Below are positions 11,720 to 48,615 of a stretch of 64,000 nucleotides of DNA, in pieces (position 1 is the stretch's first letter; every line of letters starts with the position of its first letter). The translations under genes were made by a program, and so were the position numbers. This stretch comes from Pseudomonadota bacterium (GTDB taxonomy: Bacteria; Pseudomonadota; Alphaproteobacteria; Rhodobacterales; Rhodobacteraceae), in NCBI GenBank assembly GCA_038527345.1, contig JBCBFX010000006.1, forward strand, positions 640 to 64,639. The letters run 5' to 3'. The notes under the pieces were generated by a model. The model had not been told where the DNA came from and made no database searches. It saw nothing but the letters and a program-made list of their open reading frames with translations.

Positions 11720-11968
11720 CGGGCATCCCCTCAAATAGAGTTTCGGCAATTAAATGCAGTGTGCCGAAACGGCTGAATACCGGGCAATTATGCCACCTTT
11801 GAGGGAATCGACCAAGTGACCGGATCAATCTGGATCATTCGATGCGGTGCCCCTGAACGTCGCCAGAACAAGGGCTTGCGCGCCTTGGGAAACGATTTTT
11901 TTCCCTTTTTTGTCAGGTGTGTTAGGCTGCCATTACACAAAAAAAACCAACATCAGGGAACTCCAAAC

Positions 11969-24151: not shown

Positions 24152-24241
24152 GGACAGGTGGCCGAGTGGTCGAAGGCGCGCGCCTGGAAAGTGCGTAGGC
24201 GGGAAACCGTCTCGAGGGTTCGAATCCCTTCCTGTCCGCCA
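24152..24241 (+). tRNA. tRNA-Ser (anticodon GGA)
   Basis: Acceptor stem GGACAGG/CCTGTCC with discriminator G and an encoded CCA. The anticodon stem is CGCGC/GTGCG with loop CTGGAAA. It has a long variable arm typical of class II tRNAs and T-loop GGTTCGAATCC. Confidence 0.92.
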
Positions 24242-33349: not shown

Positions 33350-33590
33350 GTCCAAAATCGCCTTTGCGCGAAACGCCGAAAAATCGCCAATCAATCAACT
33401 ATAGATAGCATGAAACCGGTCTTTCTGTCACGGCGTCCGGCACCGGGACATGGCATTGGCCGCATGATCACCCTGATCCGGGCGGCAGGAACAGCCCGTC
33501 GCAGGTCCGGTCGAACCGATGGGCCGGTGCCGTTTCCGCACCCCCCCACAGCGCCGGTCCGGCGTTCCGGAAACCGCAGGTTCGGGGCGA

Positions 33591-35999
33591 TCAAATAGGG
33601 CTTTCCTCGGCCTTGATCGTCAGGCGGGCGCATCCGCCGTTTCCTGCATAGGAGTTCATGAACGGCCAGAAGATCATGTCATTGACGTACAGGAACAGAT
33701 GGCCGTCCTTTTCCGCCCGCACCCGCGCGGTCACCGTAGTGATCACAGGCGTTTTCTGGTCGACCCCCTCGCACCCCCGCACCCCATCGACCGGCCACCC
33801 CTGGACTGACCGCATGAAATGGGTCGACTTGCCCGAATAGTTTTCAAGCGGCACGATCGAACTGCCGACCCGGCCGATTTGCGCCACGGGCTGGAACCAA
33901 CTGGTGCCCGTCCGGCGGATCAGCTTGCCAAAGACATAGGACCGCTGGCTGGTTTCAAACCCGGACATCGGAACGCGTTGTCCTTCGTCGCTGAACGGCA
34001 CGAGTTCCTCGAGCCTGATCCAGTATGTGCGCCCCTCGACAAGGTCTACGCCAGAGCTCCAGCACACCTCTCGCGGAGAAAATCCACCGGGCGTTTCGTA
34101 AACCTCGCCGGGTTCGACGCCGCGCGACAAACCGGGCTGCGGACACAGATTTCCGGCGACTGTCGTCACGGTCAGACCGGTGACCTGCACGACCTTCACC
34201 ACGCCCAAAAGCACAAGGGCCGCCAGCGCGACTGGAATGACCCATGCGCTGAAGAAGGTATAGATGTGTTTGGCGATGCCGCTTGCCCGAAGCCTTTCCC
34301 CCGTTCGGACCAGCAGCCGGTCCAGCGCGCGGTCGAGTGTCATCGTCTTGTCCGACGTCCAGACGGTACGGGACCCGTCCCGTATCCGGTCGCGCAAAGA
34401 TGTGCTGGAGCGTTGCAATGCGATGGCCAAAAGGATGAGCGGAATGGAGAGCGCGGGTATATTGGCAAAGGATTGCAACCAGGGCTGTACAAAGCCGGGC
34501 ACGACCGCAGTCACCACACCGGGCAGCGACAGACTTGCCGCGCTTTGCGGTGGCATGCCCGGTTGGACCAACGCCCTGATCACGGTGTCGGTCCAGGGCA
34601 GCGCCGCCAGAAACAGCAAGATGGCGATGAATGCCACGTTCGCCACCCGTTTCCACATGACCAGCGATTTGACCTGCTGGGCAAGGGCGCTGTTGTGGCT
34701 GAGCGACACCTGCTGCGGCTGTTCATGCGGCAGGAAATCATCCGTCAGCATCACGGGCGCATAGCCATCGCGACCCGCCAGGATCTTTTCGACCACCGAA
34801 CCATGCACAACGGGCTTGCCGCCAAAGGCGTCTCCGCTTTCGACGGGGCGGGGGGTATAGCGGTATGCGGATTTCATTCCGCTGCGCGAGTCGTGGATCA
34901 GTGCGTTCTTTGATCGGCGACTGTCCCAGTCGTCGACCAGCGGAGCGATGAATTGCAGGCCGTCCTGTTCCGCCTCGCGTATCATCCAGATCAGCGGCTC
35001 GAGCGAGGCTTCATCGTTGGGATAGCCGCCACCGATGTCGGCATGCATTCCGGCAAACCAGACTTCCTTGATCCGGGGCCCGTCGGTCTGGTTGCCGGGG
35101 CCGCTCAGGTCCAGGCGCGGTGTCTGATCGAACCGCAGCGGATGGTAGGTGCGCCGCTCGTCGTCCAGTGCCAGGGCATGGCGCACGTCCTCTACCGCGG
35201 CACTGCAAACGCGGTTTCGGAAGCTGATCGGCCAGATCCAGAAATCGATCATCGCCCGCACTTCCTCGAGCGGGACACCATAGGCTTCGACCGTATCAAA
35301 CAGGCCAAGGAACTTGATCTTGACGTTTCCGGCATCACGCTCGGGACATTCCGATTTGACGGTGCCCTGTACCTGCGCGTGCGTCTTCTGTCGCAACACC
35401 CAACGTTTGATCCGCACACCGACATCGCGAATGAACCTGCCGGCCGAAACCGTCGGGCTCATGCGGATCTTGCCGGATTGCGGGTCGCGGAACGGCGCTG
35501 TCTTTTGCCGGTAATCCCGCCATGCGCCACCGGCATTGCGCCGCATTTCCGCCGACGACACGGTGCGGCCGTCGACTTGCTTCGGGATCAGGCCCTGAGA
35601 CTGGATCAGGCTCGCCAGGGTGCGCACGGTAAAGGCGCCGCGGCTGAAGCCGAACATCCAGATTTCATCGCCGGGTTCCCAGTTCCAGCACAAGAACCGA
35701 TAGAGTTTCTGCACATTGCTGGGAACGCCAAAGCCGGTAGCACCGTCAAACAGGCGGATCAGACCGATCGAGGACGTGCCGACGCCGGGAATGTACCGGG
35801 CCAGCTGCTGGTTCTGCTTCAACGGATGCAGCCCGCGCTTGTCCACCGCGTCGTAGATCCGCCAGATGTTCGACGCCTGGCTGCCGAACGCATTCCCGGT
35901 TCCGTCGGCAAACACGATCAGACGCTTGGGCAGGCGTTTGCCGGTCTTGCGACCCTCGTGCAATTCCGGACCGGTTTCTGGTTTGTGATTACTTTTCAT
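33591..35999 (-). CDS. DUF2235 (Tle1-like alpha/beta-hydrolase) domain protein fused to a multi-TM region and a C-terminal beta-rich domain
   Basis: 802 aa from ATG 35999 (RBS GGAG). DUF2235 hallmarks are LIVFADGTGNAF, YIPGVGT and the nucleophile elbow IWMFGFSRGAFTVR. Three to four hydrophobic helices lie at about aa 470-620. The C-terminal ~190 aa contains HLFLYVNDMIFWPFMNSYAGNGG. Confidence 0.82.
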   Translation of the reverse strand: MKSNHKPETGPELHEGRKTGKRLPKRLIVFADGTGNAFGSQASNIWRIYDAVDKRGLHPLKQNQQLARYIPGVGTSSIGLIRLFDGATGFGVPSNVQKLYRFLCWNWEPGDEIWMFGFSRGAFTVRTLASLIQSQGLIPKQVDGRTVSSAEMRRNAGGAWRDYRQKTAPFRDPQSGKIRMSPTVSAGRFIRDVGVRIKRWVLRQKTHAQVQGTVKSECPERDAGNVKIKFLGLFDTVEAYGVPLEEVRAMIDFWIWPISFRNRVCSAAVEDVRHALALDDERRTYHPLRFDQTPRLDLSGPGNQTDGPRIKEVWFAGMHADIGGGYPNDEASLEPLIWMIREAEQDGLQFIAPLVDDWDSRRSKNALIHDSRSGMKSAYRYTPRPVESGDAFGGKPVVHGSVVEKILAGRDGYAPVMLTDDFLPHEQPQQVSLSHNSALAQQVKSLVMWKRVANVAFIAILLFLAALPWTDTVIRALVQPGMPPQSAASLSLPGVVTAVVPGFVQPWLQSFANIPALSIPLILLAIALQRSSTSLRDRIRDGSRTVWTSDKTMTLDRALDRLLVRTGERLRASGIAKHIYTFFSAWVIPVALAALVLLGVVKVVQVTGLTVTTVAGNLCPQPGLSRGVEPGEVYETPGGFSPREVCWSSGVDLVEGRTYWIRLEELVPFSDEGQRVPMSGFETSQRSYVFGKLIRRTGTSWFQPVAQIGRVGSSIVPLENYSGKSTHFMRSVQGWPVDGVRGCEGVDQKTPVITTVTARVRAEKDGHLFLYVNDMIFWPFMNSYAGNGGCARLTIKAEESPI

Positions 36000-36370
36000 G
36001 GCGCTCCGCGGTTTTTCGCGCAAAAAAGATTTCTGTTCGCACGGGGAATTCGATGCGCGCCGCGCGTGTGCGAATTCAATTCATATGTCTTCGAACCAGG
36101 CGACAAAAAAACCTCGTCATGTGCATGAATTAAAAAAACATTTCTTCGATCATCTGCTGCGGCGGCCACCATGCAGACCGCTGTGCGAAATCAATGCTTT
36201 GCCGATCTCAACGGTCAAGAAATCAACCGTCGGACAGTATTGTTCAGGCCGCCCAATTGGCCGCGCTTCTCTACATGGTTGCAATAAATTCGATTCGGGC
36301 CAACACTGAATGCAGATGTTCCGAACAATAGGTTGATGCCATTTCCAGACAAAAATCAGGAGATATCTTG

Positions 36371-38782
36371 ATGTTTTCCCGTAGTTTTTTCTTGATTTCC
36401 CTTATTCTGATTTTCCCGGTCGCAGCAGCGGCGCAATTGTTCTCGGGTCCGCGTGACGAGGCGATGCTTGTGGGGCGCGACGAAACAACGTTTCCGCCTG
36501 CAGACGAAAACTACTTCGCCGAGATGGACAACGGCCTGGCGCTGTCCCCGGACGAGGTCAAGGGCCGCAACATGTGGATGGTCTGGACCGGCGGCAACGA
36601 CCTGCTGTGGGACCGGCTGACCCGCGACACGTTCGGGCAGTTCGATCTGCTCAAAACGTTGTCTTCGCATCCCGATCTGCCTGCGCAACGGTCGAACCGT
36701 TTTGAGTATCTGGGCCTGATCAACGAACCCTGTTTCGAAGAGGCGACCGGCCCCGACCCGGACAGGTTCGGCCTGTGGCTGGACCGGCGCACAGACGACT
36801 GCGCGCCCGATCCCTTTGCGAACGCCGACAAATATCCGGGCGTTGAAATCGGCGCGCGGGGACGCAATGTGCCTGCGGGGTCCTATTACGGCGAACCGAC
36901 CGGTGTGCTGGGCCTGCGGTTGTTTCCCAATCCCGATTTCGATGAACGCGCGGAACAGCGTTGGGACCCGGAACGGTTTTACAACGATCCCGATTACTAC
37001 TTCGACAAGGATCTGGTCCGCCCCTACCGGGTTGGCATGTCCTGTGCCTTTTGCCATGTGGGCCCAAGCCCGATTGACCCGCCGGCCGACCCGGAAAACC
37101 CTGCGATGCGCAATCTGAATGCGACCGTCGGTGCACAGTATTTCTGGTTCGACCGCATCTTTGCCTGGCAGCCGGACGCGCGCCAATACATGGTCCAGCT
37201 GATCCACACGGCCCGGCCCGGTGCGCTGGATACGTCGCTGGTGTCACCCGACTATATCAACAACCCCCGCACGATGAACGCGATATACCTGCTTGAAGAA
37301 CGGCTGCGGAACGCAACGCGGTTCGGAGAGGAAAGGCTGTCGGGCGGTGAACGGGACAACGTGCAGTTTCAGGATGTCGTGGCCGATGGTCCGCTTCTTG
37401 ATTACTTCAAGTCGCCTGATCTCAGCCTCAGCCCACGTGTTCTCAAGGACGGTGCGGATTCGGTCGGGGCGCTTGGCGCGCTGAACCGGGTCTATCTGAA
37501 TATCGGCCTGTTCAGCGAAGAGTGGACGCGGCACTTCAATCCGATTGTCGGCGGTCGCGACATCACGCCGATCAAGATCGAGACCGCGCAGAAAAACTCG
37601 GCCTACTGGCGCGCGACCGAGGCGCAGACCCCGCTGACCGCGCTGTATTTCCTCAAGGCCGGACGCCCGGACCTGTTGTCCGACGCGCCGGGCGGTGCCG
37701 CGTATCTGACCGAGGACGACGAAACACTGGACCGCGGCAAGACGCTGTTTGCCGAAAACTGCGCCCGCTGCCATTCCAGCAAGCTGCCCGAAGTCGCCTA
37801 TCGCACCATTCCCGGGGGCTGTTCGGGACCCAACTACATGCAATGCTGGTCCAATTACTGGGAATTGACCAAGACCGACAGCTTCAAGGCCCAGATGCGC
37901 GAAATCGTCCACGCTGACGATTTTCTGGACAACAACTATCTGTCGAACGAATTGCGCATTCCGGTCACCTTGCTGGAAACCAACGCCTGCAGCCCGCTGG
38001 CGACCAACGCCATCGAGGGCAACATCTGGGACAACTTCTCGTCATCGACCTACAAGGCGCTGCCGTCGGTCGGCAAGATCAAGGTGCATCACCCGGTGAC
38101 GGGCGAACCCTATGACTTCGATATGCCCGCAGGCGGGCGCGGCTACACCCGGGTCCCGTCGCTGATCAGCCTGTGGTCGACCGCGCCGTACCTGCTGAAC
38201 AACACGGTCGGCACCTACGAACAGGATCCGTCGGTCGAGGCGCGCATGCGCACCTTTGATGATGGCATCCGCAAGATGCTGTGGCCCGACACGCGGGTGC
38301 GGGACAGCGAATTGGGCGACAAGGTGCCCGGCCTGATCGACCGCACGACCGCGCAGAGTTACCTGATGATCCCGCGCGGTTTCCAGCCCGATTTCCTTGT
38401 GCGTCTGTTCGAGCCGTTCCGGGACGAATTGCCGTGGCTGTTCAGCGCAAATGGCGACATCGAGCTTGGTCCGATCCCGAAGGGCACGCCGGTCAACCTG
38501 CTGGCCAATCTGAACGTCCGGCTGGATCAGGCGGATCTGATCGACCGGATCGAACATGATTTCAAGCTGGCGCGGCTGATCATCATGATGAAGCGCGACT
38601 TGAAGGATCTGCCCGACAACGTCAGCGACACGCAGGCGCGCGCCATATTCGCCGATCTCGTCGACCCGCTGCTGGAACTCAGCAAATGCCCGGACTTCGT
38701 GGTGAACCGTGGGCACTATTTCGGCACCAAGCTTTCGGATGCGGAAAAAGAGGACCTGATCGCCTATCTGAAAAACTTCTGA
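36371..38782 (+). CDS. secreted di-haem c-type cytochrome-like protein (large, family unassigned)
   Basis: ATG at 36371 lies 7 nt after AGGAGA. Signal peptide MFSRSFFLISLILIFPVAAAAQ. There are two CxxCH motifs: CAFCH at 37043-37057 and CARCH at 37760-37774. Confidence 0.85.
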   Translation: MFSRSFFLISLILIFPVAAAAQLFSGPRDEAMLVGRDETTFPPADENYFAEMDNGLALSPDEVKGRNMWMVWTGGNDLLWDRLTRDTFGQFDLLKTLSSHPDLPAQRSNRFEYLGLINEPCFEEATGPDPDRFGLWLDRRTDDCAPDPFANADKYPGVEIGARGRNVPAGSYYGEPTGVLGLRLFPNPDFDERAEQRWDPERFYNDPDYYFDKDLVRPYRVGMSCAFCHVGPSPIDPPADPENPAMRNLNATVGAQYFWFDRIFAWQPDARQYMVQLIHTARPGALDTSLVSPDYINNPRTMNAIYLLEERLRNATRFGEERLSGGERDNVQFQDVVADGPLLDYFKSPDLSLSPRVLKDGADSVGALGALNRVYLNIGLFSEEWTRHFNPIVGGRDITPIKIETAQKNSAYWRATEAQTPLTALYFLKAGRPDLLSDAPGGAAYLTEDDETLDRGKTLFAENCARCHSSKLPEVAYRTIPGGCSGPNYMQCWSNYWELTKTDSFKAQMREIVHADDFLDNNYLSNELRIPVTLLETNACSPLATNAIEGNIWDNFSSSTYKALPSVGKIKVHHPVTGEPYDFDMPAGGRGYTRVPSLISLWSTAPYLLNNTVGTYEQDPSVEARMRTFDDGIRKMLWPDTRVRDSELGDKVPGLIDRTTAQSYLMIPRGFQPDFLVRLFEPFRDELPWLFSANGDIELGPIPKGTPVNLLANLNVRLDQADLIDRIEHDFKLARLIIMMKRDLKDLPDNVSDTQARAIFADLVDPLLELSKCPDFVVNRGHYFGTKLSDAEKEDLIAYLKNF

Positions 38783-38792
38783 GGAGCCCGAC

Positions 38793-40676
38793 GTGAACCC
38801 GGCCAGCTTTGACTATGTCGTCGTCGGCTCGGGTGCGGGCGGCGGTACGGTCGCGGCCAGGTTGGCCGAAGCCGGGATGCGGGTGCTGCTGCTTGAGGCT
38901 GGCGGCGACCCCAGATCGGCGCAGGGCGGCGTGCGCGGTATGGGAGACGCGAACAGGTTGCCGGATGACTACGACGTGCCCGCCTTTCATCCCTTTGCGT
39001 CCGAGAATGCCGCGCTGCGCTGGGACTTCTACGTAAACCACCATTCGGACCCGGATCAGTCCGCGCGCGACCCCAAACGCGCACCCGAGGGCGTGCTGTA
39101 TCCGCGTGCCGGCACCCTTGGCGGCTGTACCGCGCACAACGCGATGATCTTTGTCTATCCGCACCACGACGACTGGCGACACATCCAGGAGCTGACCGGG
39201 GATGACAGTTGGTCGCCGGCTGCCATGCACGCACTTTTCCGCAAGATGGAGAATTGCGGACACCGCCCGGTCCAGAAGGCGCTGAACGCCATCGGCATCG
39301 ATCGGACCGGCCACGGCTATGATGGCTGGATGCCAACCGAAAAGGCGATCCCACGGGCCGCGCTGCGCGACGATGACATCATGGATGTTGTGCGTCAGTC
39401 CCTGCGCGAGATGCTGGCAGAGGGGGGGGAGGTCGGACGCCGCTTGCGTTGGCTGGTTACAAGCGCGGCCGACCCCAACGACCTTGACCGGATCGACAAC
39501 GATGCGGAGGGGATGGTGTATACACCGCTCTCGACCCGGGATGGCGTCCGCTTTGGCGCCCGCGAACGCGTGCTGGACGTCGCACGCCGATATCCCGATC
39601 GGCTGGTCGTGGAACTGGATGCCCTGGCGACACGGGTGCTGCTGGACGATGCGCGGCGTGCCATCGGTGTCGAATACCTGAAAGGCGCGCGGCTTTACCG
39701 GGCACATGCGTCACCGAATGGCGATGCCGGCGATCGGCGACAGGCGATGGCGACCCGAGAGGTCATCCTTGCCGGTGGCGCATTCAACACACCGCAATTG
39801 CTGATGCTGTCCGGGATTGGCGCTGCGGACGATTTGGACCGCTTCGGCATTCCTCAACGCGTCGAACTGGATGGTGTAGGCGGCAACCTTCAGGACCGGT
39901 ACGAGGTCGCGGTTGTCAACAGGATGGCCTTTGACTGCTGGGAAAGCATGGCCGACTGCCGATACGAAGCCGGTGATCCCTTGTGGCAGGGCTGGAAATC
40001 CGGCGGCAGGGGGCTTTATGCCACCAACGGGGCGGCACTGGCGGCGATCCGGCGATCCCGCCCGGATCTGCCGCGGCCGGACCTGTTCTGCATGGCGCTT
40101 CTTGGACGCTTTTCCGGCTACTATCCGGGCTATGCGGCGGACCTCGCGGCCAGCCGGAACCACCTGAGCTGGGCCGTTCTCAAGGCGCATACGCTGAACC
40201 GGGCAGGGCGGGTTCGCCTGGCTTCTGCCGATCCGCGCGACAGGCCCGTCATCGATTTCAACTATTTCGAGGACGGGGGCGACACGGACCTTCAGGCGGT
40301 CGTCGAGGGGGTCAAGTTCGTTCGGAAGCTGACCGAACCACTGCGCCGCGACGGTCGCATTACCGCCGAGGAAATACCCGGCCCGGACATTCAGACCGAC
40401 GCACAGATCGCCCAGTACATCCGCGACGAATGCTGGGGCCACCATGCGTCGTGCAGCTGCCCCATCGGTTCCCCGGAACGCGGCGGGGTTCTGGACAGCC
40501 GGCTTCGGGTGCATGGCACGCGGGGCCTTCGGGTCGCCGACGCCTCCGTCTTTCCGCGCATTCCGGGATTCTTCATCGCGTCGTCCGTCTACATGGTCGG
40601 CGAAAAGGCGGCGCAGGTCATTCTGGACGACGCTGACCATCAACACGCTACAGAAGGGATCTATCATGGCACATGA
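38793..40676 (+). CDS. GMC family FAD-dependent oxidoreductase (choline dehydrogenase-like)
   Basis: 627 aa. The FAD motif is FDYVVVGSGAGGGTVAARLAEAG. GGCTAHNAM is present, and the C-terminal GMC signature is HHASCSCPIG...RVADASVFPRIPG. Confidence 0.9.
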   Translation: MNPASFDYVVVGSGAGGGTVAARLAEAGMRVLLLEAGGDPRSAQGGVRGMGDANRLPDDYDVPAFHPFASENAALRWDFYVNHHSDPDQSARDPKRAPEGVLYPRAGTLGGCTAHNAMIFVYPHHDDWRHIQELTGDDSWSPAAMHALFRKMENCGHRPVQKALNAIGIDRTGHGYDGWMPTEKAIPRAALRDDDIMDVVRQSLREMLAEGGEVGRRLRWLVTSAADPNDLDRIDNDAEGMVYTPLSTRDGVRFGARERVLDVARRYPDRLVVELDALATRVLLDDARRAIGVEYLKGARLYRAHASPNGDAGDRRQAMATREVILAGGAFNTPQLLMLSGIGAADDLDRFGIPQRVELDGVGGNLQDRYEVAVVNRMAFDCWESMADCRYEAGDPLWQGWKSGGRGLYATNGAALAAIRRSRPDLPRPDLFCMALLGRFSGYYPGYAADLAASRNHLSWAVLKAHTLNRAGRVRLASADPRDRPVIDFNYFEDGGDTDLQAVVEGVKFVRKLTEPLRRDGRITAEEIPGPDIQTDAQIAQYIRDECWGHHASCSCPIGSPERGGVLDSRLRVHGTRGLRVADASVFPRIPGFFIASSVYMVGEKAAQVILDDADHQHATEGIYHGT

Positions 40677-41118
40677 TATCGAAACGCTCATGGATATGAG
40701 TCAGGATGAGCTGGACGCGCTGTTCTCCAGCGTTCCGGCGGGCGATATCCCGGACGGCGAGGCCGAGGGCACCGCCATCGTCGCCCCGGGTACGAAATTC
40801 ACGCCGCTCATCTCGCGCTTCATCAACAGCTTCGCCTGGCAGGGAAAAGTGTTCGACGGCTCCAAGGGGGTCTTGCGCAACCGCATTCTGCCCTTTGGGC
40901 TCAATGCCATTCTCGCCAGGGTCTACAAGGATAAAAGCTGGCTCGATGGCAAGGAATGCATCGTGCTCGACTATTCCGATACTTCCATTCTGGCGCAATG
41001 GATCCGGGACGAGATCCGCGCCATCGGACCGGGGCTGTACCTGGGCAAGGTCTATTGGGACGACAATCGCCTGATCGACTTCGCACTCGATTTCAACGCC
41101 GACACGGGAACGTCCTAG
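40666..41118 (+). CDS. small 150-aa protein (GXWXG/DUF4334-like, tentative)
   Basis: ATG at 40666 overlaps the GMC gene end by 11 nt. The segments AWQGKVFDG and ECIVLDYSDTSILAQWIRDEIRAIGPGLYLGKVYW...IDFALDF resemble the DUF4334 pattern as I recall it. Confidence 0.6.
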   Translation: MAHDIETLMDMSQDELDALFSSVPAGDIPDGEAEGTAIVAPGTKFTPLISRFINSFAWQGKVFDGSKGVLRNRILPFGLNAILARVYKDKSWLDGKECIVLDYSDTSILAQWIRDEIRAIGPGLYLGKVYWDDNRLIDFALDFNADTGTS

Positions 41119-41149
41119 GCGGCGCACCTCGCGCCGGATCCGTATTGCC

Positions 41150-42451
41150 ATGACGCCGCAGACCACATTCCTCATTCTCGCGCCCGTCGCCGAGGGCAGG
41201 ATCGAAGACCTGCGCGCGCTTCTGCTGGACATGACGGTCAAGCCCGGTCTGGCGGACCCCGAAAATCCGCTGGTGCCGTTCGGGCGCTTTGACCGTCTGC
41301 ATGTTGCGCGCTTCTTCATTCCGCAGGTGGACACCTGGCGCGACATCGGGGCTTACGGCGTGGCCGCCGATCCTTATCCGCCGCAGCTTGCCTTTCTTGG
41401 TGACATCGACGGCGACAGGGAAAGCTTTCTGAACGAGCTTGTGCGCCACGCAGGCGACGGGCTGCGCCGGATTTTTGCCCATTGCGAAGACTTCGAGGAC
41501 GAAACCGATCTGCGCGCCTGGATGAGCACGCGGAACGTGGTCGAAGCGGCGAATTACGTAAACACGCTTGGTCGTACGGTGCGGCAGGTGAACGAAGAGG
41601 CGGCGCTGGCCATGGCCCTCAGAGCGCACCTGCCGCACCTGGTCAAAGCGCATGGCGCAGCGGACGCCATCTTGCTGCACGCGCGGATGCGCGAATTCGT
41701 TGACACCGAAATCAAAGAAGGGCGCTTGCGCCTGACACCGCCCGAGCGGACACCGCCATCTCGGACCATCGCCGACTGGGTCGAAAAGATCGGCGTGCCG
41801 CTGGGACTGTTTGCCATATCGCCGCTGGTTCTGCTTGCGTCGCCTTTGCTGTTGTTTCGATTGCGTCAACTGGAACGGTCAGACCCCGAAATCCTGCCGC
41901 GTCCGGACGATGCCCGGGTCGCCACGCTTGGCACCTATGAGGACCACGATGTAACCAATCCCTTTTCGGCCATCGGCGATCTGAAGCCCGGAGGTTTCCG
42001 GCGGGCGACCGCAACAGTCGCCCTTTACCTGCTGAACTACGCGGCCCGGCATATATTCTCGCGCGGTTACCTGACCCGCGTGCAGACGATCCATTTCGCC
42101 CGGTGGGTGTATCTGGATGACAAACGGCGCGTGATGTTCTGCAGCAATTACGATGGCGCATTGGAAAGCTACATGGACGATTTCGTCAACAAGGTCGCCT
42201 GGGGCCTCAATATCGTGTTCTCGAACGGTGTCGGCTATCCGTCCACGCGCTTCCTGATCCTTGATGGGGCGGAACAGGAGAGCAGGTTCAAAAGCTACCT
42301 GCGCAACCGACAGCAACCGACCGAGGTCTGGTACAAGGCTTATCCCGGCCTTACGACAATCGACCTTGCGCGGAACACCCAGATCCGGGCCGGATTGCAA
42401 TCCCGTCCACGCGGGCATCGGGCGCTGCGCAAATGGCTGGGCAAGATATGA
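41150..42451 (+). CDS. hypothetical 433-aa protein with one central hydrophobic helix
   Basis: The ORF is in an operon position. The hydrophobic segment is IGVPLGLFAISPLVLLASPLLLF. The conserved-looking TRVQTIHFARWVYLDD and ALESYMDDFVNKVAWGLN were not assignable to any family I can name with confidence. Confidence 0.72.
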   Translation: MTPQTTFLILAPVAEGRIEDLRALLLDMTVKPGLADPENPLVPFGRFDRLHVARFFIPQVDTWRDIGAYGVAADPYPPQLAFLGDIDGDRESFLNELVRHAGDGLRRIFAHCEDFEDETDLRAWMSTRNVVEAANYVNTLGRTVRQVNEEAALAMALRAHLPHLVKAHGAADAILLHARMREFVDTEIKEGRLRLTPPERTPPSRTIADWVEKIGVPLGLFAISPLVLLASPLLLFRLRQLERSDPEILPRPDDARVATLGTYEDHDVTNPFSAIGDLKPGGFRRATATVALYLLNYAARHIFSRGYLTRVQTIHFARWVYLDDKRRVMFCSNYDGALESYMDDFVNKVAWGLNIVFSNGVGYPSTRFLILDGAEQESRFKSYLRNRQQPTEVWYKAYPGLTTIDLARNTQIRAGLQSRPRGHRALRKWLGKI

Positions 42452-43950
42452 GCCGTGCGCGCACATATCCCGCGCGTCCTGTCGACTTTGCCGACATGCA
42501 GGGGCTGGTGCGCTTTGGCCACGGGCGGCTGGTCGAAGCGGAATTCCTGCTGCTGTCCGTGACCGATGTCGCGGCTGCGCGGCACTGGCTGGCGACGGCG
42601 CCCGTGACCTCTGCCGAAACACTGGAAGAACCACCCGACGTGGCACTGCAAATCGCATTTACCGCCACAGGGCTGCGTGCGCTTGGGCTGGCGGACGACT
42701 TTGTGGCGCAGTTTTCGCAGCCGTTTCTGGCCGGGATGGCGGGCGAGCAAAGCCGGGCGCGCCGATTGGGCGATACCGGCACCAACGCGCCGGAACACTG
42801 GCATTGGGACGCGGCGGGCAGCCACGTGCTGCTGATGCTGTATGCGCGCGCGGGCGGGCTGGACGACTTCAGGTCGACCGTTCTGGAGGGTGAATTCGAA
42901 ACGGCTTTCGGCCGTGTTCAAACCCTGACGACCCGGTCCAACGACGGCATCGAACCGTTCGGCTTTGCCGACGGCATCAGCGAACCGAAAGTGGATTGGG
43001 AACAGGCGCATCCGCCGTCGAAACACGGTCGCGAAGCCTATGAAAACATGATTGCACCGGGTGAGGTCGTGCTGGGCCACATCAACGAATACAACGAAGT
43101 GTCGCCCGCCCCGCAGTTGACCACAAGCGTCGCGGGCGCCGACGTCCCGCCAACGCAAGAGAGCCCGCAGGACATGCGGGATTTCGGCGGCAATGGCAGT
43201 TATCTGGTGCTGCGCCAACTGGAACAGGATGTCGCGGGCTTCTGGCGCTACCTCGATGATGTCACCGACGGCGACCCGACCGAACGCGCGGCGTTGGCCG
43301 CAGCCATGGTCGGCCGCCAGCAGGACGGCACGCCGCTTGTCCGGGGGCGGCGCGACATCGTGGGGGGACGACACGGCAACAACTTCACCTTTGATGACGA
43401 CATCGACGGTGTCGTTTGCCCCGTGGGTGCCCATATCCGCCGGGCCAACCCGCGCACGGGTGATCAGCCGCCGGGGGTCGATGGGGTCTGGTCCTGGATC
43501 CTCAGCACGCTTGGCTTTCGACGCCGACGCGACAAGCTGCCGGGCCGGCACGATCTGGTTGCGTCGACCCGCTTTCACCGCCTTGTCCGGCGCGGCCGGG
43601 CCTATGGCCCCAAGCTGTCGCCCGAAGACGCGCTGACAAACCCGTCGGGCGCGGCACAGGGTCTGCACTTCATCTGTCTTTGCGCCAATCTGACCCGTCA
43701 GTTCGAATTCGTCCAGAACGCCTGGATGTCCGCGCCGGGCTTCAACGGCCTGCGTTCCGAGGCCGACCCGCTGGTCGGCAGCCGCGCGCCCGTGGGCGGC
43801 GTGCCAAGTGACAGCTTCAGCATCCAGCGCGCCACCGGGATCGGTCGCCGTTACGACAACCTGCCGCAATTCGTGACCGTCCGCGGGGGCGGGTATTTCT
43901 TTCTGCCCGGCTTGCGTGCGCTCCGCTTTATCGCGCGGCAGAAAGACTAG
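42448..43950 (+). CDS. DyP-type (dye-decolorizing) haem peroxidase family protein
   Basis: 500 aa from ATG 42448 (ATGA overlap with the upstream stop; ATG at 42433 is an alternative). Motifs are MQGLVRFG, EPFGFADGISEP, CPVGAHIRRANPR (proximal His region), RRGRAYG and GGGYFFLPG. Confidence 0.85.
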   Translation: MSRARTYPARPVDFADMQGLVRFGHGRLVEAEFLLLSVTDVAAARHWLATAPVTSAETLEEPPDVALQIAFTATGLRALGLADDFVAQFSQPFLAGMAGEQSRARRLGDTGTNAPEHWHWDAAGSHVLLMLYARAGGLDDFRSTVLEGEFETAFGRVQTLTTRSNDGIEPFGFADGISEPKVDWEQAHPPSKHGREAYENMIAPGEVVLGHINEYNEVSPAPQLTTSVAGADVPPTQESPQDMRDFGGNGSYLVLRQLEQDVAGFWRYLDDVTDGDPTERAALAAAMVGRQQDGTPLVRGRRDIVGGRHGNNFTFDDDIDGVVCPVGAHIRRANPRTGDQPPGVDGVWSWILSTLGFRRRRDKLPGRHDLVASTRFHRLVRRGRAYGPKLSPEDALTNPSGAAQGLHFICLCANLTRQFEFVQNAWMSAPGFNGLRSEADPLVGSRAPVGGVPSDSFSIQRATGIGRRYDNLPQFVTVRGGGYFFLPGLRALRFIARQKD

Positions 43951-43959
43951 GAGATCACC

Positions 43960-45159
43960 ATGCGCGCCATCCTCGTCGCACTCCGCCGCCTGCTGCACCG
44001 TCTGTTGCAGGCGGGTCTGCATATCGAACGGCGGCTCGAACCCTTCTTTCGACCGCAACTGAACCGCCTGGTCCGCGCGCCCACCGCACGCCTGTTGCAA
44101 CGGCTCAAGAACCGCAAACGGCCCGACCTGGGCCTCGGTCCGGCCGAAGAAAGGATCTTTGACTGGGAAGAGGAAGCCCTGCAAACCATCATCGACGAAA
44201 TGCGCGAGCAAATGAACCTGCATTTCCAGCCCGGTGCCTATGAACGCGGTGGCAACACCAAGACACACGGGCTGGTCCGCGCCACTTTCACTGTCCACTC
44301 GGACCTGCCGGATCACCTGCGCAAGGGCGTGTTCGCGACCGAACGCAGCTATCCCGCCTATATCCGCTTTGCCGGTCCCGGGCCTGACGTGCCCGAGGAC
44401 ATCCGCGATGTGGGTTTCGGGTCCATGTCCGTCAAACTGATGGACGTGCCGGGCCCCAAGCTGATGGACGAAGAGAAGTTCACCCAGGACTGGCCCGCCG
44501 TTGTCACCCCGACCTTTGTGACCCCGGACGTGCGTGAAAACGCCAAGTTGCAGTACTGGAGCACGATTGACGAGGCGCTCTGGTACTTTCTCGATCCGCG
44601 TGACCTGCACCTGATCGACTTTCTGATGCAGGGGCTTTGGAACGAAACGCAGATGAACCCGTTGGGCCACCGCTACTACAGCTGCGTGCCTTACCTGTTG
44701 GGCGAAGGACAGGCGATGCTGTATTCCTACGCGCCGTTGACGGACGTGCCGATGACCATACCGGGTGTGCCATTCGGGCGCGTACCGCCGAACTACCTGC
44801 GTGACAACATGGCCAAGACGCTGCGCGGTAAACCGGTGGAATTCGACATGCTGGTCCAACTCCAGACCGATCCGCATCTGATGCCGGTCGAGGATGCATC
44901 GGTGCTTTGGCCCGAGGACAAATCACCCTGGATCCCGGTCGCGCGCATCCACATCCCCATGCAGGATTTCGACCGACCGTCGCAGATGGCGTTCGCCCGA
45001 AACCTGCGGATCAATCCCTGGCACGCGCTGCCCGACCACCGCCCCCTTGGCAACCAAAGCCGGGCGCGGCGTCGTATGTACCAGGAGTTGGCGGCCTTTC
45101 GACAGAAAATGAACCAGGCCGCCCATGTCGAGCCGACAGGAAATGAGACGTTCGACTGA
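43960..45159 (+). CDS. catalase-fold haem protein (small catalase-related/y4iL-like family; not a canonical catalase)
   Basis: 399 aa with RBS AGGAGA. Features are GGNTKTHGLVRATFTV (distal His region), YIRFAG, INPWHALPDHRPLGNQSRARRRMY (proximal Arg..Tyr region), and a length typical of mini-catalase relatives. Confidence 0.78.
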   Translation: MRAILVALRRLLHRLLQAGLHIERRLEPFFRPQLNRLVRAPTARLLQRLKNRKRPDLGLGPAEERIFDWEEEALQTIIDEMREQMNLHFQPGAYERGGNTKTHGLVRATFTVHSDLPDHLRKGVFATERSYPAYIRFAGPGPDVPEDIRDVGFGSMSVKLMDVPGPKLMDEEKFTQDWPAVVTPTFVTPDVRENAKLQYWSTIDEALWYFLDPRDLHLIDFLMQGLWNETQMNPLGHRYYSCVPYLLGEGQAMLYSYAPLTDVPMTIPGVPFGRVPPNYLRDNMAKTLRGKPVEFDMLVQLQTDPHLMPVEDASVLWPEDKSPWIPVARIHIPMQDFDRPSQMAFARNLRINPWHALPDHRPLGNQSRARRRMYQELAAFRQKMNQAAHVEPTGNETFD

Positions 45160-45506
45160 TCTGACCGCAGTTTCGGACCGGGCAAAGGCCCGCACATCGC
45201 CCGATCCGGTTGAACGGGCTTGTCTGGCGGACCGCACATATTTGCCCTGCCGGTGCCCAGCCCACCCAAAGCGCGCAAAGCATCAACGCGGGAATTGACT
45301 GCCCGGTTACGGGCGCCGGAGGGGATGGTGTCGTTCGTTGTGACGGTGAGCGCAACGGCAATCCGCCGTCCGATGGGTGTGCCGATCGCCCGCGATCAAC
45401 GCGCCTCTTGCAAAGCCGGGTGGGGCCGGTATCGTTATGATATCGTGACTGCTTCCGTTATGAATGCTGACTTGGAACGCACGCAACGTCGTGCATGGGA
45501 GGAACT

Positions 45507-46820
45507 ATGAGAAAACCAACGTTTGTCGCGCTTCTGGCTGCCGGAACGGCGTTGTCGCCATTGGCTGCCTACGCTGAAACCGAAGTGCAGTTCTGGCACG
45601 CCTTTACCGGGCGACTTGGAGAACTGGTGAAAGCCCAGGTCGAGGAATTCAACAACAGTCAGAGCGATTACGTCGTCGTCGAAAGCCACAAGGGCAACTA
45701 TTCCGAGACGTTGAACGCAGGGATCGCGGCCTTCCGCGCGGGCGAGCAGCCTCATATCCTGATGGTGTTCGAAGTTGGCACCGCGACCATGATGTCGGCC
45801 GAAGGTGCCACCAAGCCGGTCTACGAAGTGATGGCTGAAAGCGGCGCCACCTTTGATCCGGACGCCTATATCGGGTCGGTCAAAGGCTACTACACGACGA
45901 CGGACGGAGAGATGCTGAGCTTGCCGTTCAACTCCTCGACCCCGGTCCTGTGGGTGAACCGCGACGCGTTCGAAGCCGCGGGCGTTGATCCCGACACCGA
46001 TCTGTCCACGTGGCAGAAGGTCGGCGAAACGCTGGACGCATTGAAAGCAGGCGGCGAAGAGTGCCCGCTGGTCACCGCCTGGCAAAGCTGGATCCATCTC
46101 GAGAATTTCTCGGCCTACCATGACGTGCCATTCGCGTCGCAGGACAACGGCTTTGCCGGTCTGGATACCGAGTTGATGCTGAACGGTCCCGCACAGGTGG
46201 CGCACCTGACAGCGATGGGCGAATGGGCGCAGGACGGCAAGTTCGTCTATACAGGTCGGCGCAACGAGGGCGGTGCCAACTTCCGCTCGGGTGAATGCGC
46301 GCTCTTCACCGAAAGCTCGGCGGGGTATGCCGGCATCAAGGCCGAGGCGCAGTTCGATTTCGATGTGCGTCCGCTGCCCTATTGGGAAGGTGTCGGCAAT
46401 TCGCCTCAGAACACCATCATCGGTGGCGCGTCGCTTTGGGTTCTCGAAGGGCATGAGGCCGCGGAATACAAGGGCGTTGGCGAATTCCTTGCCTTTCTGT
46501 CCTCGTCTGACGTTCAGGCGCAGTGGCACCAGGATACCGGTTATCTGCCCATCACCGCCGAAGCGGGAGAAGCCACGCGTGCAGCAGGCTTCTACGAGGA
46601 AAACCCCGGCACGGACATTGCCGTGATCCAGATGACCGCCAAGGAACCCACCGCCAATTCCAAGGGGCTGCGTCTGGGGTCCTTCGATCAGATCCGCGGT
46701 ATCATCGACGAAGAACTGGAAGCGATCTGGGCCGGCGACAAGAGCGCCCAAGAGGCCATGGACAGCGCCAAGTCGCGGGGCGATGCGCTGCTGCGGCGCT
46801 TTGAGTCGGCCAACAAATAA
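45507..46820 (+). CDS. ugpB: sn-glycerol-3-phosphate ABC transporter substrate-binding protein
   Basis: 437 aa from ATG 45507 (RBS GGGAGGA). It has a signal peptide MRKPTFVALLAAGTALSPLAAYA and the family-1 SBP pattern EVQFWHAFTGRLGELV. It is followed by ugpAEC-like genes. Confidence 0.82.
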   Translation: MRKPTFVALLAAGTALSPLAAYAETEVQFWHAFTGRLGELVKAQVEEFNNSQSDYVVVESHKGNYSETLNAGIAAFRAGEQPHILMVFEVGTATMMSAEGATKPVYEVMAESGATFDPDAYIGSVKGYYTTTDGEMLSLPFNSSTPVLWVNRDAFEAAGVDPDTDLSTWQKVGETLDALKAGGEECPLVTAWQSWIHLENFSAYHDVPFASQDNGFAGLDTELMLNGPAQVAHLTAMGEWAQDGKFVYTGRRNEGGANFRSGECALFTESSAGYAGIKAEAQFDFDVRPLPYWEGVGNSPQNTIIGGASLWVLEGHEAAEYKGVGEFLAFLSSSDVQAQWHQDTGYLPITAEAGEATRAAGFYEENPGTDIAVIQMTAKEPTANSKGLRLGSFDQIRGIIDEELEAIWAGDKSAQEAMDSAKSRGDALLRRFESANK

Positions 46821-46827
46821 GCATGAA

Positions 46828-46860
46828 CCGGGCAGGTCCCTGCGGCCTGCCCGGTTTCTT
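46828..46860 (+). terminator. hairpin + T-rich run after ugpB (intra-operon attenuator)
   Basis: CCGGGCAGG-tccctgcgg-CCTGCCCGG followed by TTTCTT. Confidence 0.6.
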
Positions 46861-46874
46861 GCGGGGGCAAATCC

Positions 46875-47756
46875 ATGGAAAAGCGCGTTACCTTTCGCGG
46901 CTGGCTGCTGCCGCTCCTGCTGATTGCGCCACAGGTCTTCATTTCGGCGGTGTTCTTCTTTTACCCGGCCGGGCAGGCGATCTGGCAGTCGCTTTTCATT
47001 CCGGACCCATTCGGGCTTTCGTCGCAATTCGTGGGGCTGGGCAATTTCGAATTCCTTTTGGGCGACCCGTTCTATCGGGCGTCGTTTCTGACGACGGCGA
47101 TCTTTTCGATCCTTGTGACGCTGTGTTCGATGATCCCGGCCTTGTTTCTTGCCGTCATTGCGGATCGCCTGATCAAGGGGTCGGGCGTGTATCGGACCCT
47201 GCTGATCTGGCCCTATGCGGTCGCGCCAGCTGTCGCGGGTGTGCTGTGGCTGTTCATGTTCAACACGCGCGTTGGTGTCATATCCTGGTATCTCGGGACG
47301 CTGGGATATGACTGGAACCACGTCCTGAACGGGGGAGAGGCGATGGGGCTGGTTGTTGTCGCCTCTGCCTGGGGGCGGATCAGCTATAACTTCCTGTTTT
47401 TCTTCGCCGCACTTCAAGCGGTGCCCAGATCCGTGATCGAGGCGGCGGCCATCGACGGCGCCCGCTTCTGGCGCCGGTTCTTCACGATAGTGTTGCCGCT
47501 TCTGTCTCCTACCACGTTTTTCCTGCTGGTCGTGAACGTGGTCTATGCCTTCTTTGAAACCTTCGGCGTGATCCACACAATCACGGCCGGTGGTCCCCAG
47601 CAGTCCACGACCATTCTGGTTTACAAGGTCTTTTCAGACGGGTTCGTCGGGCAGGACTTGGGATCAAGCTCGGCCCAGTCGGTGATCCTGCTGGTTGTTG
47701 TCGGACTGCTGACGATCATCCAGTTCAAGTTCATCGAAAAGCGGGTGCATTACTGA
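46875..47756 (+). CDS. ugpA: ABC transporter permease (UgpA-like)
   Basis: 293 aa, 6 TM, with an EAA-type loop [21 protein letters not shown]. Confidence 0.88.
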
Positions 47757-48613: not shown

Positions 48614-48615
48614 AT

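Follow-up and report, generated by a model that had tools for sequence, protein, structure and literature searches.

A conserved bacterial cluster of haem and flavin enzymes with a possible role in lipid-hydroperoxide conversion

The di-haem protein and its described relatives

The Pseudomonas aeruginosa proteins PA2077 and PA2078 (FadCCP, the oleate-diol synthase) are a periplasmic fatty-acid dioxygenase and diol synthase; they are related to the rubber oxygenase RoxA and, like it, use O2 on hydrophobic alkenes (PMC4496055). In Nostoc punctiforme, a haem dioxygenase of the animal-peroxidase/COX family (the linoleate 10S-dioxygenase, 10S-DOX) acts with a separately encoded, small catalase-related haemoprotein, the 10S-hydroperoxide lyase (Brash et al. 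2014, J Biol Chem 289:13101, cited in PMC13049297 and PMC9579011). The window, by which we mean the whole 64,000-nucleotide stretch of Rhodobacteraceae DNA that was analysed, carries a cluster of six + strand genes (g1 to g6, 36371-45159) that bears comparison with both systems. The initial annotation of this locus knew of no pathway of such composition, and we likewise found no published description of one, or of the cluster, in the literature.

The cluster is real and tightly packed. The ORF list of the window contains all six genes, and their junctions, from g1/g2 to g5/g6, are +10, -11, +31, -4 and +9 nt, in agreement with the range of -11 to +31 nt first reported. The g4/g5 junction becomes -19 nt if an alternative g5 start at 42433 is used; an independent gene caller picked the same genes and the start at 42448 on an identical metagenome contig. 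Gene g1 starts with an ATG at 36371 (a TTG is also present at 36368), preceded 7 nt upstream by an AGGAGA ribosome-binding site. That site lies in a 347-nt, AT-richer divergent intergenic region (36024..36370), the presumed promoter region; we only infer that the promoter is placed there, since no sigma-70 consensus site was found in those 347 nt. Shuffled sequence has promoter-like and terminator-like sites at least as often as the interior of the cluster, so that transcription of the six genes as a single unit is plausible. Only g1 among the six proteins has an export signal, and thus the cluster spans periplasm and cytoplasm, as had been suggested.

Gene g1 (36371..38782, + strand) encodes an 803-aa di-haem c-type protein. 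The Sec signal sequence (MFSRSFFLISLILIFPVAAAAQ) and the two CxxCH motifs noted initially are both visible in the translation, and the motifs, CAFCH (aa 225-229) and CARCH (aa 464-468), are invariant in 18 homologues. Pfam Cytochrom_C matches the second motif, and the NCBIfam model NF040606 ("di-heme cytochrome c peroxidase") matches g1 partially and under its cut-off (E 2.8e-10). A weak, sub-threshold match to PF21419 (RoxA-like_Cyt-c) at PSLISLWSTAPYLLNNTVG is seen in 8 of the 18 family members. Comparison of the family profile with the PDB gave no solved structure that matches outside the cytochrome c motif, and RoxA was not matched.

Like PA2077/PA2078 and RoxA, g1 is Sec-exported and roughly double an ordinary cytochrome c peroxidase in size, and the CxxCH spacing is about 240 aa in all of them (229/468, or 239 aa, in g1 and 130/375 in PA2077; PMC4496055). 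All have a MauG-type motif downstream of the second haem and, close to the C-terminus, a His (His782 in g1) that is a candidate for the distal axial position. On the other hand, the His of their MauG motif (PYFH-NGSV) is replaced by Leu in g1 (APYLLNNTV), g1 is longer by about 130-180 aa, and it is a single-copy gene rather than one of a tandem pair like PA2077/PA2078, with partner genes that are not alike. Architecture and short motifs, to which the likeness is confined, suggest placing g1 in the bacterial cytochrome c peroxidase superfamily as a large protein of the RoxA/FadCCP kind, and it is a candidate for the primary (di)oxygenase of a pathway.

The other five proteins of the cluster

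Gene g2 (38793..40676, + strand) encodes a 627-aa FAD oxidoreductase without export signal, whose earlier assignment to the GMC family is borne out by the GSGAGGG motif in its translation and by Pfam matches to GMC_oxred_N (E 5.5e-19) and GMC_oxred_C (E 2.7e-31). The sequence WGHHASC is invariant in 39 homologues. The protein scores under the NCBIfam cut-offs for choline dehydrogenase, and its best PDB relatives (E 1e-45 to 1e-33) are alcohol/choline oxidases, chloramphenicol oxidoreductase and fatty-acid photodecarboxylase.

Genes g3 and g4 were initially called uncharacterised, and neither has a family match in Pfam or NCBIfam. The 150-aa conserved protein g3 (40666..41118, + strand), of no described family, also gave no match in PADLOC and PDB searches; at least 7996 homologues (90% clusters) were found among 8000 candidates scored, every one labelled hypothetical. 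The AF2 and Foldseek analysis that had been advised for both proteins was informative for g4 and gave nothing significant for g3, whose model is of low confidence (pLDDT 52.6) and whose non-significant Foldseek matches are mainly to lipocalin/FABP structures. The 433-aa membrane-anchored protein g4 (41150..42451, + strand) is the signature gene product of the module; its homologues, which keep a length near 433 aa, number over 5440 at the 90% level and fall into 3144 clusters at 50%. Its model (pLDDT 81, pTM 0.84) best matches WhiE-ORFI (9lmn, ABM/SchA-like; E 2.6e-5, prob 1.0), followed by the Abx(+)O polyketide decarboxylase 9ltx and then the tandem-ABM proteins 3f44 and 3mcs, in all of which a barrel is built from two ferredoxin-like halves. 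By this model, g4 is predicted to be a tandem ferredoxin-like (ABM-type) alpha+beta barrel. Identity to these barrels is at most about 10% and TM-scores are modest (0.33-0.59), and g4 differs from them in lacking a polyketide context and in the insertion of a roughly 40-residue hydrophobic helix between its halves. That single long helix (residues 203-244 of the model) is the central one remarked on earlier; in one homologue (P0369) the hydrophobic element is enlarged to several helices. Typical ABM barrels work without a cofactor as oxygenases, isomerases or decarboxylases.

Gene g5 (42448..43950, + strand) encodes a 500-aa DyP haem peroxidase of the C/D type without Tat or Sec signal. All three motifs by which it had been recognised (FGFADGISEP, CPVGAHIRRANPR and GGGYFFLPG) are present in the translation, and D175/G176, H329 and R331-R336 are invariant in 27 homologues; these comprise the Asp of GxxDG (D175), the proximal His (His329) and the arginines of FHRLLRRGR. 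TIGR01413 matches at E 5e-22, under its curated cut-off. The family profile finds 8re3 (E 6e-60), fungal D-type DyPs, Amycolatopsis DyP2 (4g2c) and Anabaena AnaPX (5c2i) in the PDB, all homologous to g5 over its full length and sharing its GxxDG Asp, proximal His and distal Arg region. Unlike these named enzymes, g5 is fixed beside g4 in a conserved operon and is sometimes fused to it. No profile relation between g4 and DyP is detectable.

Gene g6 (43960..45159, + strand) encodes a 399-aa catalase-related haemoprotein, or mini-catalase. A Pfam search gave no match, and its homologues are labelled "catalase family protein" by NCBI. A joint profile of g6 and its paralogue from other loci (hhalign E 4e-61 between the two) has as its best solved relatives the coral allene oxide synthase (AOS) domain 1u5u (E 1.6e-8) and MAP_2744c (3e4w, E 2.3e-6), and true catalases rank behind them (E 1e-3 to 0.1). 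The three share a core of about 320 aa and the proximal Arg-x3-Tyr, whereas g6 has at its N-terminus a conserved basic stretch of about 75 aa that 1u5u and 3e4w lack, and no lipoxygenase fusion such as that of the coral enzyme. Characterised members of this catalase branch act on fatty-acid hydroperoxides. The catalase fold read from the sequence at first holds for the proximal side, where the invariant residues R370 and Y374 correspond in alignment to R411 and Y415 of E. coli KatE, but less well for the distal side: in ungapped register the distal Thr-His of coral AOS falls on Gly98-Asn99, Asn99 is invariant, and the nearly invariant His103 lies four residues on. The paralogue has Gln and Ile/Val at positions 99 and 103 and no His there, and His103 can only tentatively be assigned as the distal His of g6. 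The haem-ligand residues whose conservation was in question, the CxxCH motifs of g1, His329 of g5 and Y374 of g6, are thus all invariant.

A four-gene core with interchangeable front ends

Relatives of g4 were found in at least 587 species genomes, whose range takes in Paracoccaceae, Nitrosomonas, Desulfobulbaceae and Acidobacteriaceae, and the carriers include sulfate-reducing lineages, nitrifiers, methanotrophs and microaerophiles. Among the carriers that can be cultured are Litoreibacter arenae DSM 19593, Sedimenticola selenatireducens DSM 17993 and Paraburkholderia sacchari LMG 19450. All of g3, g4, g5 and g6 are kept in 72 of 80 loci examined, those short of the full set being mostly truncated contigs; median junctions over the related loci are -11, +22, +10 and -4 nt, and core sequences are 50-90% identical across phyla. 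Since the identical gene order recurs in different phyla, the arrangement is far beyond chance. The neighbourhood conservation anticipated for the cluster is indeed strong, but comparison of the loci shows the conserved unit to be g3-g4-g5-g6, with order and spacing kept across several phyla, and not all six genes.

Upstream of this unit, 29 loci have g1 and g2 alone (front end A), 25 have only a different pair (front end B), and 4 have both. Front end B comprises a second mini-catalase, the paralogue of g6 mentioned above, and an alpha-dioxygenase-like haem protein of about 950 aa with a lipoprotein signal, which is closest to plant alpha-dioxygenases (E 1e-73 for its profile against the rice and Arabidopsis enzymes); its catalytic Tyr/His motif is intact and FTSVYRLH is invariant. 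From their distribution among the loci, A and B are shown to be interchangeable front ends, each starting with an exported haem protein. To the extent that the citing accounts describe the Nostoc proteins, the pairing of a dioxygenase with a small catalase-related protein in 25-29 related loci is like theirs, and g6 appears to fall in the mini-catalase branch of the Nostoc lyase. The front end B dioxygenase differs from 10S-DOX in its size of about 950 aa, its lipoprotein anchor and its nearness to plant alpha-dioxygenases; in the window the COX-type enzyme is replaced by the di-haem c protein and the GMC enzyme, and those accounts make no mention of g3, g4 or DyP genes.

Fusions also link the core proteins. 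Genes g3 and g4 are fused as one protein in P0370 and P0394, and g4 to DyP in P0397, P0499, P0489, P0459 and P0426; there are also a P450-g4 (P0507) and an EEP-g4 fusion (P0395). Locus L087 carries An_peroxidase, EEP-g4, DyP, g3, g6 and patatin genes.

Neighbouring genes and possible roles

Divergent from g1 lies a gene for a Tle1-like (DUF2235) phospholipase with hydrophobic segments (33591..36023, - strand; PF09994, E 1.2e-66) in which a GFSRG serine motif is visible. Full-length orthologues of it adjoin g1 in two other loci (L005 and L007), and Tle1-like genes lie at most 3.1 kb from the cluster, mostly directly adjacent, in 9 related loci. Patatin is the commonest Pfam domain in same-strand downstream genes (8 of 78), and alpha/beta hydrolases are neighbours in at least six loci. 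Phospholipase genes (Tle1-like and patatin) are thus the most recurrent neighbours, even if one or the other is adjacent in only about a fifth of the loci. The Tle1-like gene of the window is probably accessory and substrate-supplying.

The reading that we favour, with prospects that are not quite even, is that the cluster encodes a membrane-associated pathway of fatty-acid or unsaturated-lipid dioxygenation and hydroperoxide conversion ("oxylipin-type"). The adjacent phospholipase would free a fatty acid from membrane lipid, and periplasmic g1 would add O2 to form a hydroperoxide, or cleave a double bond, like PA2077 or RoxA. The Tyr-ligated haem of g6 would then act on the hydroperoxide as an allene oxide synthase or a hydroperoxide lyase does, rearranging or cleaving it, and g5 would reduce the hydroperoxide or take it as oxidant. 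Helix-anchored g4, physically with g5 and g3, might extract or transform a hydrophobic intermediate, and g2 might oxidise a product hydroxyl or supply an activating peroxide. Because g1 is periplasmic and g2, g5 and g6 have no export signal, an intermediate would need to pass through the membrane or reside in it. Synteny, fusions, front end B, the AOS-branch mini-catalases, the Nostoc and FadCCP precedents, the phospholipase neighbours, the gene set of L087 and the anchor and fold of g4 speak for this reading. Against it count the separation of g1 from g2, g5 and g6 by the membrane, the adjacency of a patatin or Tle1-like gene in no more than about a fifth of the loci, the short-motif nature of the likeness of g1 to RoxA/FadCCP, the uncertain distal His of g6, the low-confidence g3 model, the presence of TIR, caspase and subtilase neighbours, which suggest another direction, and the carriage of the module by sulfate reducers, usually regarded as anaerobes, in which an O2-dependent pathway is less obvious. 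If it is true, the pathway would be a bacterial "oxylipin-type" cascade that is apparently undescribed, and it might serve signalling, defence, membrane repair or catabolism.

The carriage by sulfate reducers and microaerophiles, which face O2 exposure, would suit instead a defence against peroxide or oxidative stress, in which the DyP and mini-catalase remove H2O2 or non-enzymatically peroxidised membrane lipid, g1 is a periplasmic cytochrome c peroxidase and g3 and g4 serve as accessories for membrane targeting or repair. Of the six proteins, three come from peroxide-consuming superfamilies, g1 partly matches the di-haem cytochrome c peroxidase model, and g4 is anchored in the membrane. This seems unlikely to us, however, since alpha-dioxygenase-like enzymes such as that of front end B, with its conserved radical-forming Tyr, make hydroperoxides, as a GMC oxidase makes rather than removes peroxide. 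The mini-catalases lie closest to the AOS branch, and with no His in its distal segment the paralogue is not built for H2O2 dismutation; links to phospholipases, P450 and EEP would be unexpected in a scavenging system. In lignin degraders, GMC oxidases are well known to be paired with DyPs as suppliers of peroxide; g2 is a true member of the GMC family, and g5 is nearest the C/D-type DyPs, a class that includes fungal oxidisers of dyes and lignin models. An H2O2-generating and H2O2-using oxidation of an aromatic, lignin-like or algal metabolite is nevertheless improbable: 25 core-bearing loci have no GMC gene and carry the alpha-dioxygenase-like enzyme and mini-catalase instead, so the initial proposal that GMC-derived H2O2 feeds the DyP and catalase fails as a general logic. 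No aromatic-catabolic genes recur among the cluster neighbours, and we know of no aromatic polymer metabolism in the nitrifiers, methanotrophs and sulfate reducers among the hosts. From the substrates first listed, an oxylipin-like one fits best, and an aromatic or algal metabolite is without specific support.

The remaining neighbours raise the idea of a conflict or immunity system against phages or competitors, in which the core makes a lipid-derived signal or peroxidises membranes and patatin, Tle1-like lipase, TIR, caspase and subtilase are variable effectors. Next to the core, patatin, Peptidase_C14 and Peptidase_S8 recur, as does TIR_2 (in 5 loci, sometimes in several copies); a CAP12-PCTIR TIR gene is present in L004 and caspase and patatin in L087. 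We regard such a role as very doubtful, given that effector-type neighbours occur in a minority of loci and that the identity of the core across phyla is unlike that of typical fast-evolving defence genes. In the window GC content is even and no mobile-element context was seen, and PADLOC models gave no match to the six proteins, the alpha-dioxygenase-like protein or the second mini-catalase. ThsB-like PADLOC models do match the TIR neighbour protein, and one patatin neighbour bears a TPR-S sensor domain.

Layout of the cluster and its recognizable enzymes

The six plus-strand genes follow one another closely, with junctions of +10, −11, +31, −4, and +9 nt in order: g1 (36371–38782), encoding an 803 aa di-haem c-type protein, g2 (38793–40676; GMC protein, 627 aa), g3 (40666–41118; 150 aa) and g4 (41150–42451; 433 aa), both without a named family, g5 (42448–43950; DyP, 500 aa), and g6 (43960–45159; mini-catalase, 399 aa). 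An AGGAGA site and a 347 nt intergenic region lie upstream of g1, consensus scans found promoter- and terminator-like sites within the cluster no more often than shuffled sequence would give, and it is likely that all six genes are carried on a single transcript. The same genes, with the same g5 start, are annotated on an identical metagenome contig. GC content is even along the window, each of the six genes is present in it once, and a plasmid origin was rejected when megablast found no match for the region in PLSDB. An 845 aa antisense ORF (42340–44877, minus strand) lies opposite g5 and g6; this and several other long shadow ORFs across the cluster are high-GC artefacts, not genes. A single tRNA gene (24152–24238, plus strand) is the sole Rfam match in the 64 kb window.

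The g5 protein is, by homology, clearly a C/D-type DyP, with haem binding and peroxidase activity predicted. A profile of 27 homologues matches 8re3 (E = 6e-60) and about 20 more DyP structures in the PDB over the full length, and g5 itself matches TIGR01413 with an E value of 5e-22 (78.6 bits, under the 100.5 cut-off). Its GxxDG motif, FGFADG, contains invariant D175 and G176, the proximal H329 (AHIRRANPR) is also invariant, and so are R375, R378, R381, and R382 of FHRLLRRGR, which aligns with the same motif in 8re3.

The g6 protein has no Pfam match, and its homologues are labelled “catalase family protein” by NCBI. Assignment as an ordinary catalase was rejected, as none of 30 members matches the Pfam Catalase model and true catalases (E = 1e-3 to 0.1) rank behind AOS-type proteins when a profile of g6 and its paralogue (A12) is searched against the PDB; the leading matches are coral AOS (1u5u, E = 1.6e-8) and MAP_2744c (3e4w, E = 2.3e-6). 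Searched alone, g6 reaches catalase-core structures at just E = 0.011–0.066. R370 and Y374, which do not vary among 30 homologues, align with the proximal R411 and Y415 of E. coli KatE; hhalign with KatE resolves this C-terminal half, which holds the proximal Tyr, and leaves the distal-His segment unaligned. The nearly invariant His103, preceded by Thr102, is one candidate distal residue, and an ungapped register with cAOS, together with the conserved Lys of the catalase “H-A-K” motif, places the invariant Asn99 at that position.

The g1 protein has a conserved export signal sequence and two CxxCH motifs (aa 225–229 and 464–468) whose C225, C228, H229, C464, C467, and H468 are invariant in 18 homologues. 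Its Pfam matches are to generic cytochrome c models alone. The NCBIfam model for di-haem cytochrome c peroxidase, NF040606, matches it in part (E = 2.8e-10, 40 bits, cut-off 150), a weak PF21419 (RoxA-like_Cyt-c) match at “PSLISLWSTAPYLLNNTVG” is present in 8 of 18 family members (E = 0.012–0.1), and a g1 profile searched against the PDB found generic cytochrome c/haem motifs only, with no match to CCP or RoxA. In size, export, 239 aa motif spacing, and possession of a MauG-like motif, g1 resembles P. aeruginosa PA2077 and PA2078 and RoxA, for which these features have been tabulated (PMC4496055), but the His of the MauG-type motif PY(F/L)HNGSV is absent; the frame is kept as APYLLNNTV (605–613), and a nearly invariant Leu609 stands in its place. 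Because the matches are below threshold and the motif His is Leu, we call g1 RoxA/FadCCP-like in architecture rather than a proven member of either group. The g2 protein is clearly a GMC flavoenzyme by its sequence, matching both Pfam GMC_oxred_N and GMC_oxred_C, with the FAD motif GSGAGGG and a WGHHASC segment that is invariant in its homologue alignment. No specific subfamily can be assigned; the choline dehydrogenase model gives 237 bits against a cut-off of 605.

A four-gene core with exchangeable front ends

When each GTDB species was represented by a single genome, relatives of g4 turned up in at least 587 species, and 80 loci were fetched. They come from Paracoccaceae, Geminicoccaceae, Nitrosomonas, Methylomonas/Methylobacter, Sedimenticola, Paraburkholderia, Acidobacteriaceae, Desulfobulbaceae, Desulfococcus, Desulfuromonadales, and Methylomirabilia. 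All four genes g3–g6 were mapped by BLAST in 72 of the 80 loci, usually contiguous, in the same order and on one strand, with median junctions of +22, +10, and −4 nt, and most of the loci short of the full set are at contig ends. The initial annotation had allowed that its six genes might lack synteny in related genomes or that their haem ligands might not be conserved; g3–g6 proved syntenic, and the ligand residues are conserved in the homologues. The four-gene module is little changed across marine Paracoccaceae, nitrifiers, methanotrophs, sulfate reducers, and Acidobacteria. In two loci, L023 and L067, g6 directly follows g4 with no DyP gene between them, so a neighbouring DyP is not indispensable to the module.

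Natural fusions show that haem enzymes are partners of g4 and indicate physical cooperation between the g3, g4, and g5 proteins. Representative g4 proteins are fused to g3 (P0370 and P0394) or to DyP (P0397, P0499, P0489, P0459, and P0426). One is fused to a cytochrome P450 and followed by a DyP gene (P0507; L086:8001–10577), and another is fused to an EEP domain (P0395; L087:8001–10079), where the fusion has An_peroxidase and DyP genes on either side and g3, g6, patatin, and caspase genes nearby. The EEP (endonuclease/exonuclease/phosphatase) family includes sphingomyelinase-type lipid phosphodiesterases.

The genes upstream of g3 are of two kinds. The pair g1 and g2 (front end A) is present in 29 loci, a different pair (front end B) in 25, and both in four. 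The first protein of front end B belongs to the animal haem peroxidase family, is about 950 aa long, and carries a lipoprotein signal; its profile matches the rice and Arabidopsis fatty-acid alpha-dioxygenases (E = 1e-73), and the motif FTSVYRLH, with the catalytic Tyr and proximal His, is invariant. The second is a 316 aa mini-catalase paralogous to g6 (hhalign E = 4e-61), in which Gln and Ile/Val take the places of Asn99 and His103 of g6. In an alignment of this second mini-catalase (L002:8576–9523) and its paralogues (A6) the proximal Arg and Tyr are kept and the distal segment has no His, which is unusual for a catalase-fold haemoprotein.

This pair mirrors a system in Nostoc punctiforme which, according to those passages of PMC13049297 and PMC9579011 that cite Brash (2014), consists of a COX-related linoleate 10S-dioxygenase and a separately encoded catalase-related 10S-hydroperoxide lyase. 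Adjacent An_peroxidase and mini-catalase genes occur in front end B of the related loci; the window has no An_peroxidase gene and shares this two-gene oxylipin system only through its mini-catalase. Where other lineages have front end B, an exported enzyme resembling fatty-acid dioxygenases thus stands in the place of g1. It is mainly this exchange that suggests that g1 may be a lipid (di)oxygenase, and the reactions known for PA2077 and RoxA, which g1 resembles in architecture, point the same way (PMC4496055).

The unannotated families g3 and g4

Both families comprise thousands of clusters without any annotation. Homologues of g4 form more than 5440 clusters at 90% identity, nearly all of 433 aa and every one labelled hypothetical; clustering at 50% identity leaves 3144, of which 1264 have E ≤ 1e-30. 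There is no family match for g4 in Pfam or NCBIfam. In its AF2 model (pLDDT 81, pTM 0.84) a hydrophobic helix of 40 residues separates two ferredoxin-like halves, and Foldseek places the model nearest tandem ABM/SchA-type barrels (9lmn, E = 2.6e-5, then 9ltx, 3f44, and 3mcs), a fold typical of cofactor-free transformations of hydrophobic intermediates. The helix is predicted to be a membrane anchor, and its replacement by several hydrophobic helices in the g4 representative P0369 supports this. The idea that g4 is a second DyP-like protein was discarded; the folds of g4 and g5 share no more than the ferredoxin-like barrel, and their profiles show no relationship in hhalign.

Searches of Pfam, NCBIfam, and the PDB gave no match for g3, and a suspected likeness to GXWXG/DUF4334 proteins was dropped, having no Pfam support at E ≤ 1 in 29 members. 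The AF2 model of g3, from 33 close homologues, is of low confidence (pLDDT 52.6), and Foldseek with this model returned nothing significant; the many weak lipocalin/FABP matches among its results may serve as a lead only.

Neighbouring genes and a possible role in lipid oxidation

Divergent from g1 lies a gene (33591–36023, minus strand) for an 810 aa Tle1-like/DUF2235 phospholipase (PF09994, E = 1e-66; GFSRG motif), in which several hydrophobic segments follow the catalytic domain and precede a C-terminal domain of about 200 aa without a family. Full-length orthologues flank g1 at the same position in the two closest genomes (L005 and L007). Near the cluster, Tle1-like genes are present in nine loci, patatin genes in eight, and TIR genes in five; these counts are lower bounds, since the heuristic choice of flanking ORFs sometimes took shadow ORFs in high-GC loci. 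Patatin genes are mostly directly downstream and on the same strand, as in four Nitrosomonas loci, and Patatin tops the Pfam tally of same-strand downstream genes (8 of 78), followed by response regulators, TIR_2, Tle1-like, caspase, alpha/beta hydrolase, and subtilase; the upstream tally is headed by alpha/beta hydrolases. Patatin and DUF2235 genes appear clearly enriched: 17 of the roughly 1400 genes in the neighbourhood are of these kinds, and many of them adjoin the cluster directly, against an approximate share of well under 0.1% of bacterial genes.

In several lineages genes for TIR-domain proteins (L042:14132–16174; L066, with three copies; L023; L059; L081), a TPR-S-fused patatin (L038:13901–16669), and a caspase-family protein (L087:1151–1987) lie directly beside the module, which suggests that the module may be connected with conflict or immunity systems. 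A search of PADLOC-DB 2.0 found no known defence system: none of g1–g6 matches a defence model, apart from a chance-level FAD-fold match of g2, and the only match, to ThsB-like models, comes from a TIR protein encoded next to the core at another locus.

The reading that we favour, tentatively and at somewhat less than an even chance, is that the module performs lipid chemistry at the membrane, as a bacterial oxylipin-type pathway of haem enzymes. An exported dioxygenase, which homology establishes for front end B and which we infer for g1, would oxygenate fatty acid that the neighbouring lipases could provide; the putative mini-catalases would convert the hydroperoxide, the DyP would take part in this lipid-hydroperoxide pathway, and the membrane-anchored g4 barrel, being of a cofactor-free fold type, may transform hydrophobic intermediates. 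Detoxification of peroxide or of peroxidised lipid is an unlikely alternative purpose for such a set of enzymes. The initial annotation had proposed a pathway that generates and uses peroxide; in the form in which the GMC protein makes H2O2 with which the DyP oxidises an aromatic or algal compound, this is quite improbable because the GMC protein is dispensable, g1 and g2 being replaced by the other pair in 25 loci. A conflict system that uses lipid oxidation, which the TIR, caspase, and patatin neighbours suggest but PADLOC does not support, is just as doubtful.

A broader, speculative, and rather improbable proposal is that the g3–g4–DyP–mini-catalase module, an exchangeable exported dioxygenase, and the phospholipase, TIR, and caspase neighbours form a system, widespread among prokaryotes, that uses lipid oxidation for signalling or defence. 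It would be the bacterial equivalent, and perhaps the forerunner, of the cascades that in eukaryotes run from phospholipase through COX or alpha-dioxygenase to allene-oxide synthase, with g4 as a new membrane-embedded partner that hands lipids to haem enzymes (DyP or P450).

The literature searched holds no description of the g1–g6 gene combination, nor, it appears, of the conserved four-gene core, the fusions, the alternative front ends, or the unannotated g3 and g4 families; the individual components fall within known superfamilies, and the logic of a dioxygenase with a mini-catalase has precedents. To our knowledge, bacterial oxylipin biochemistry has been described in no more than a few scattered instances (a diol synthase in P. 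aeruginosa, and a dioxygenase or lipoxygenase with a mini-catalase in cyanobacteria), and we know of natural substrates for few, if any, bacterial C/D-type DyPs. Should the module act on lipid hydroperoxides, enzymatic oxygenation of lipids would be far commoner in bacteria than has been assumed, g3 and g4 would gain a first functional context, and C/D-type DyPs a physiological role. Culturable carriers include Litoreibacter arenae, Sedimenticola selenatireducens, Paraburkholderia sacchari, and Nitrosomonas species.

A family of about 320 aa without a Pfam match, absent from the window, lies beside the module in at least eight loci of unrelated lineages, often as a tandem pair (L002:15818–16777; L021:2517–3497; L087:2486–3646 and 11446–12384; also L008, L010, L018, L022, and L035), and may be a further accessory component. 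Directly downstream of g6 in the window is an ABC uptake operon of the sugar/glycerol-phosphate type (45495–49668, plus strand; a 441 aa binding protein, two permeases, and an ATPase), which is not kept beside the module in other loci, the sole weak match being in L052. On the other side, at 30683–33394 (minus strand), a 903 aa protein, whose only matches are a weak one to PG_binding_1 and a weak likeness to one ORF of L016, has a signal-like N-terminus, Pro/Ala/Val-rich repeats of about 90 aa, and a C-terminal hydrophobic helix.
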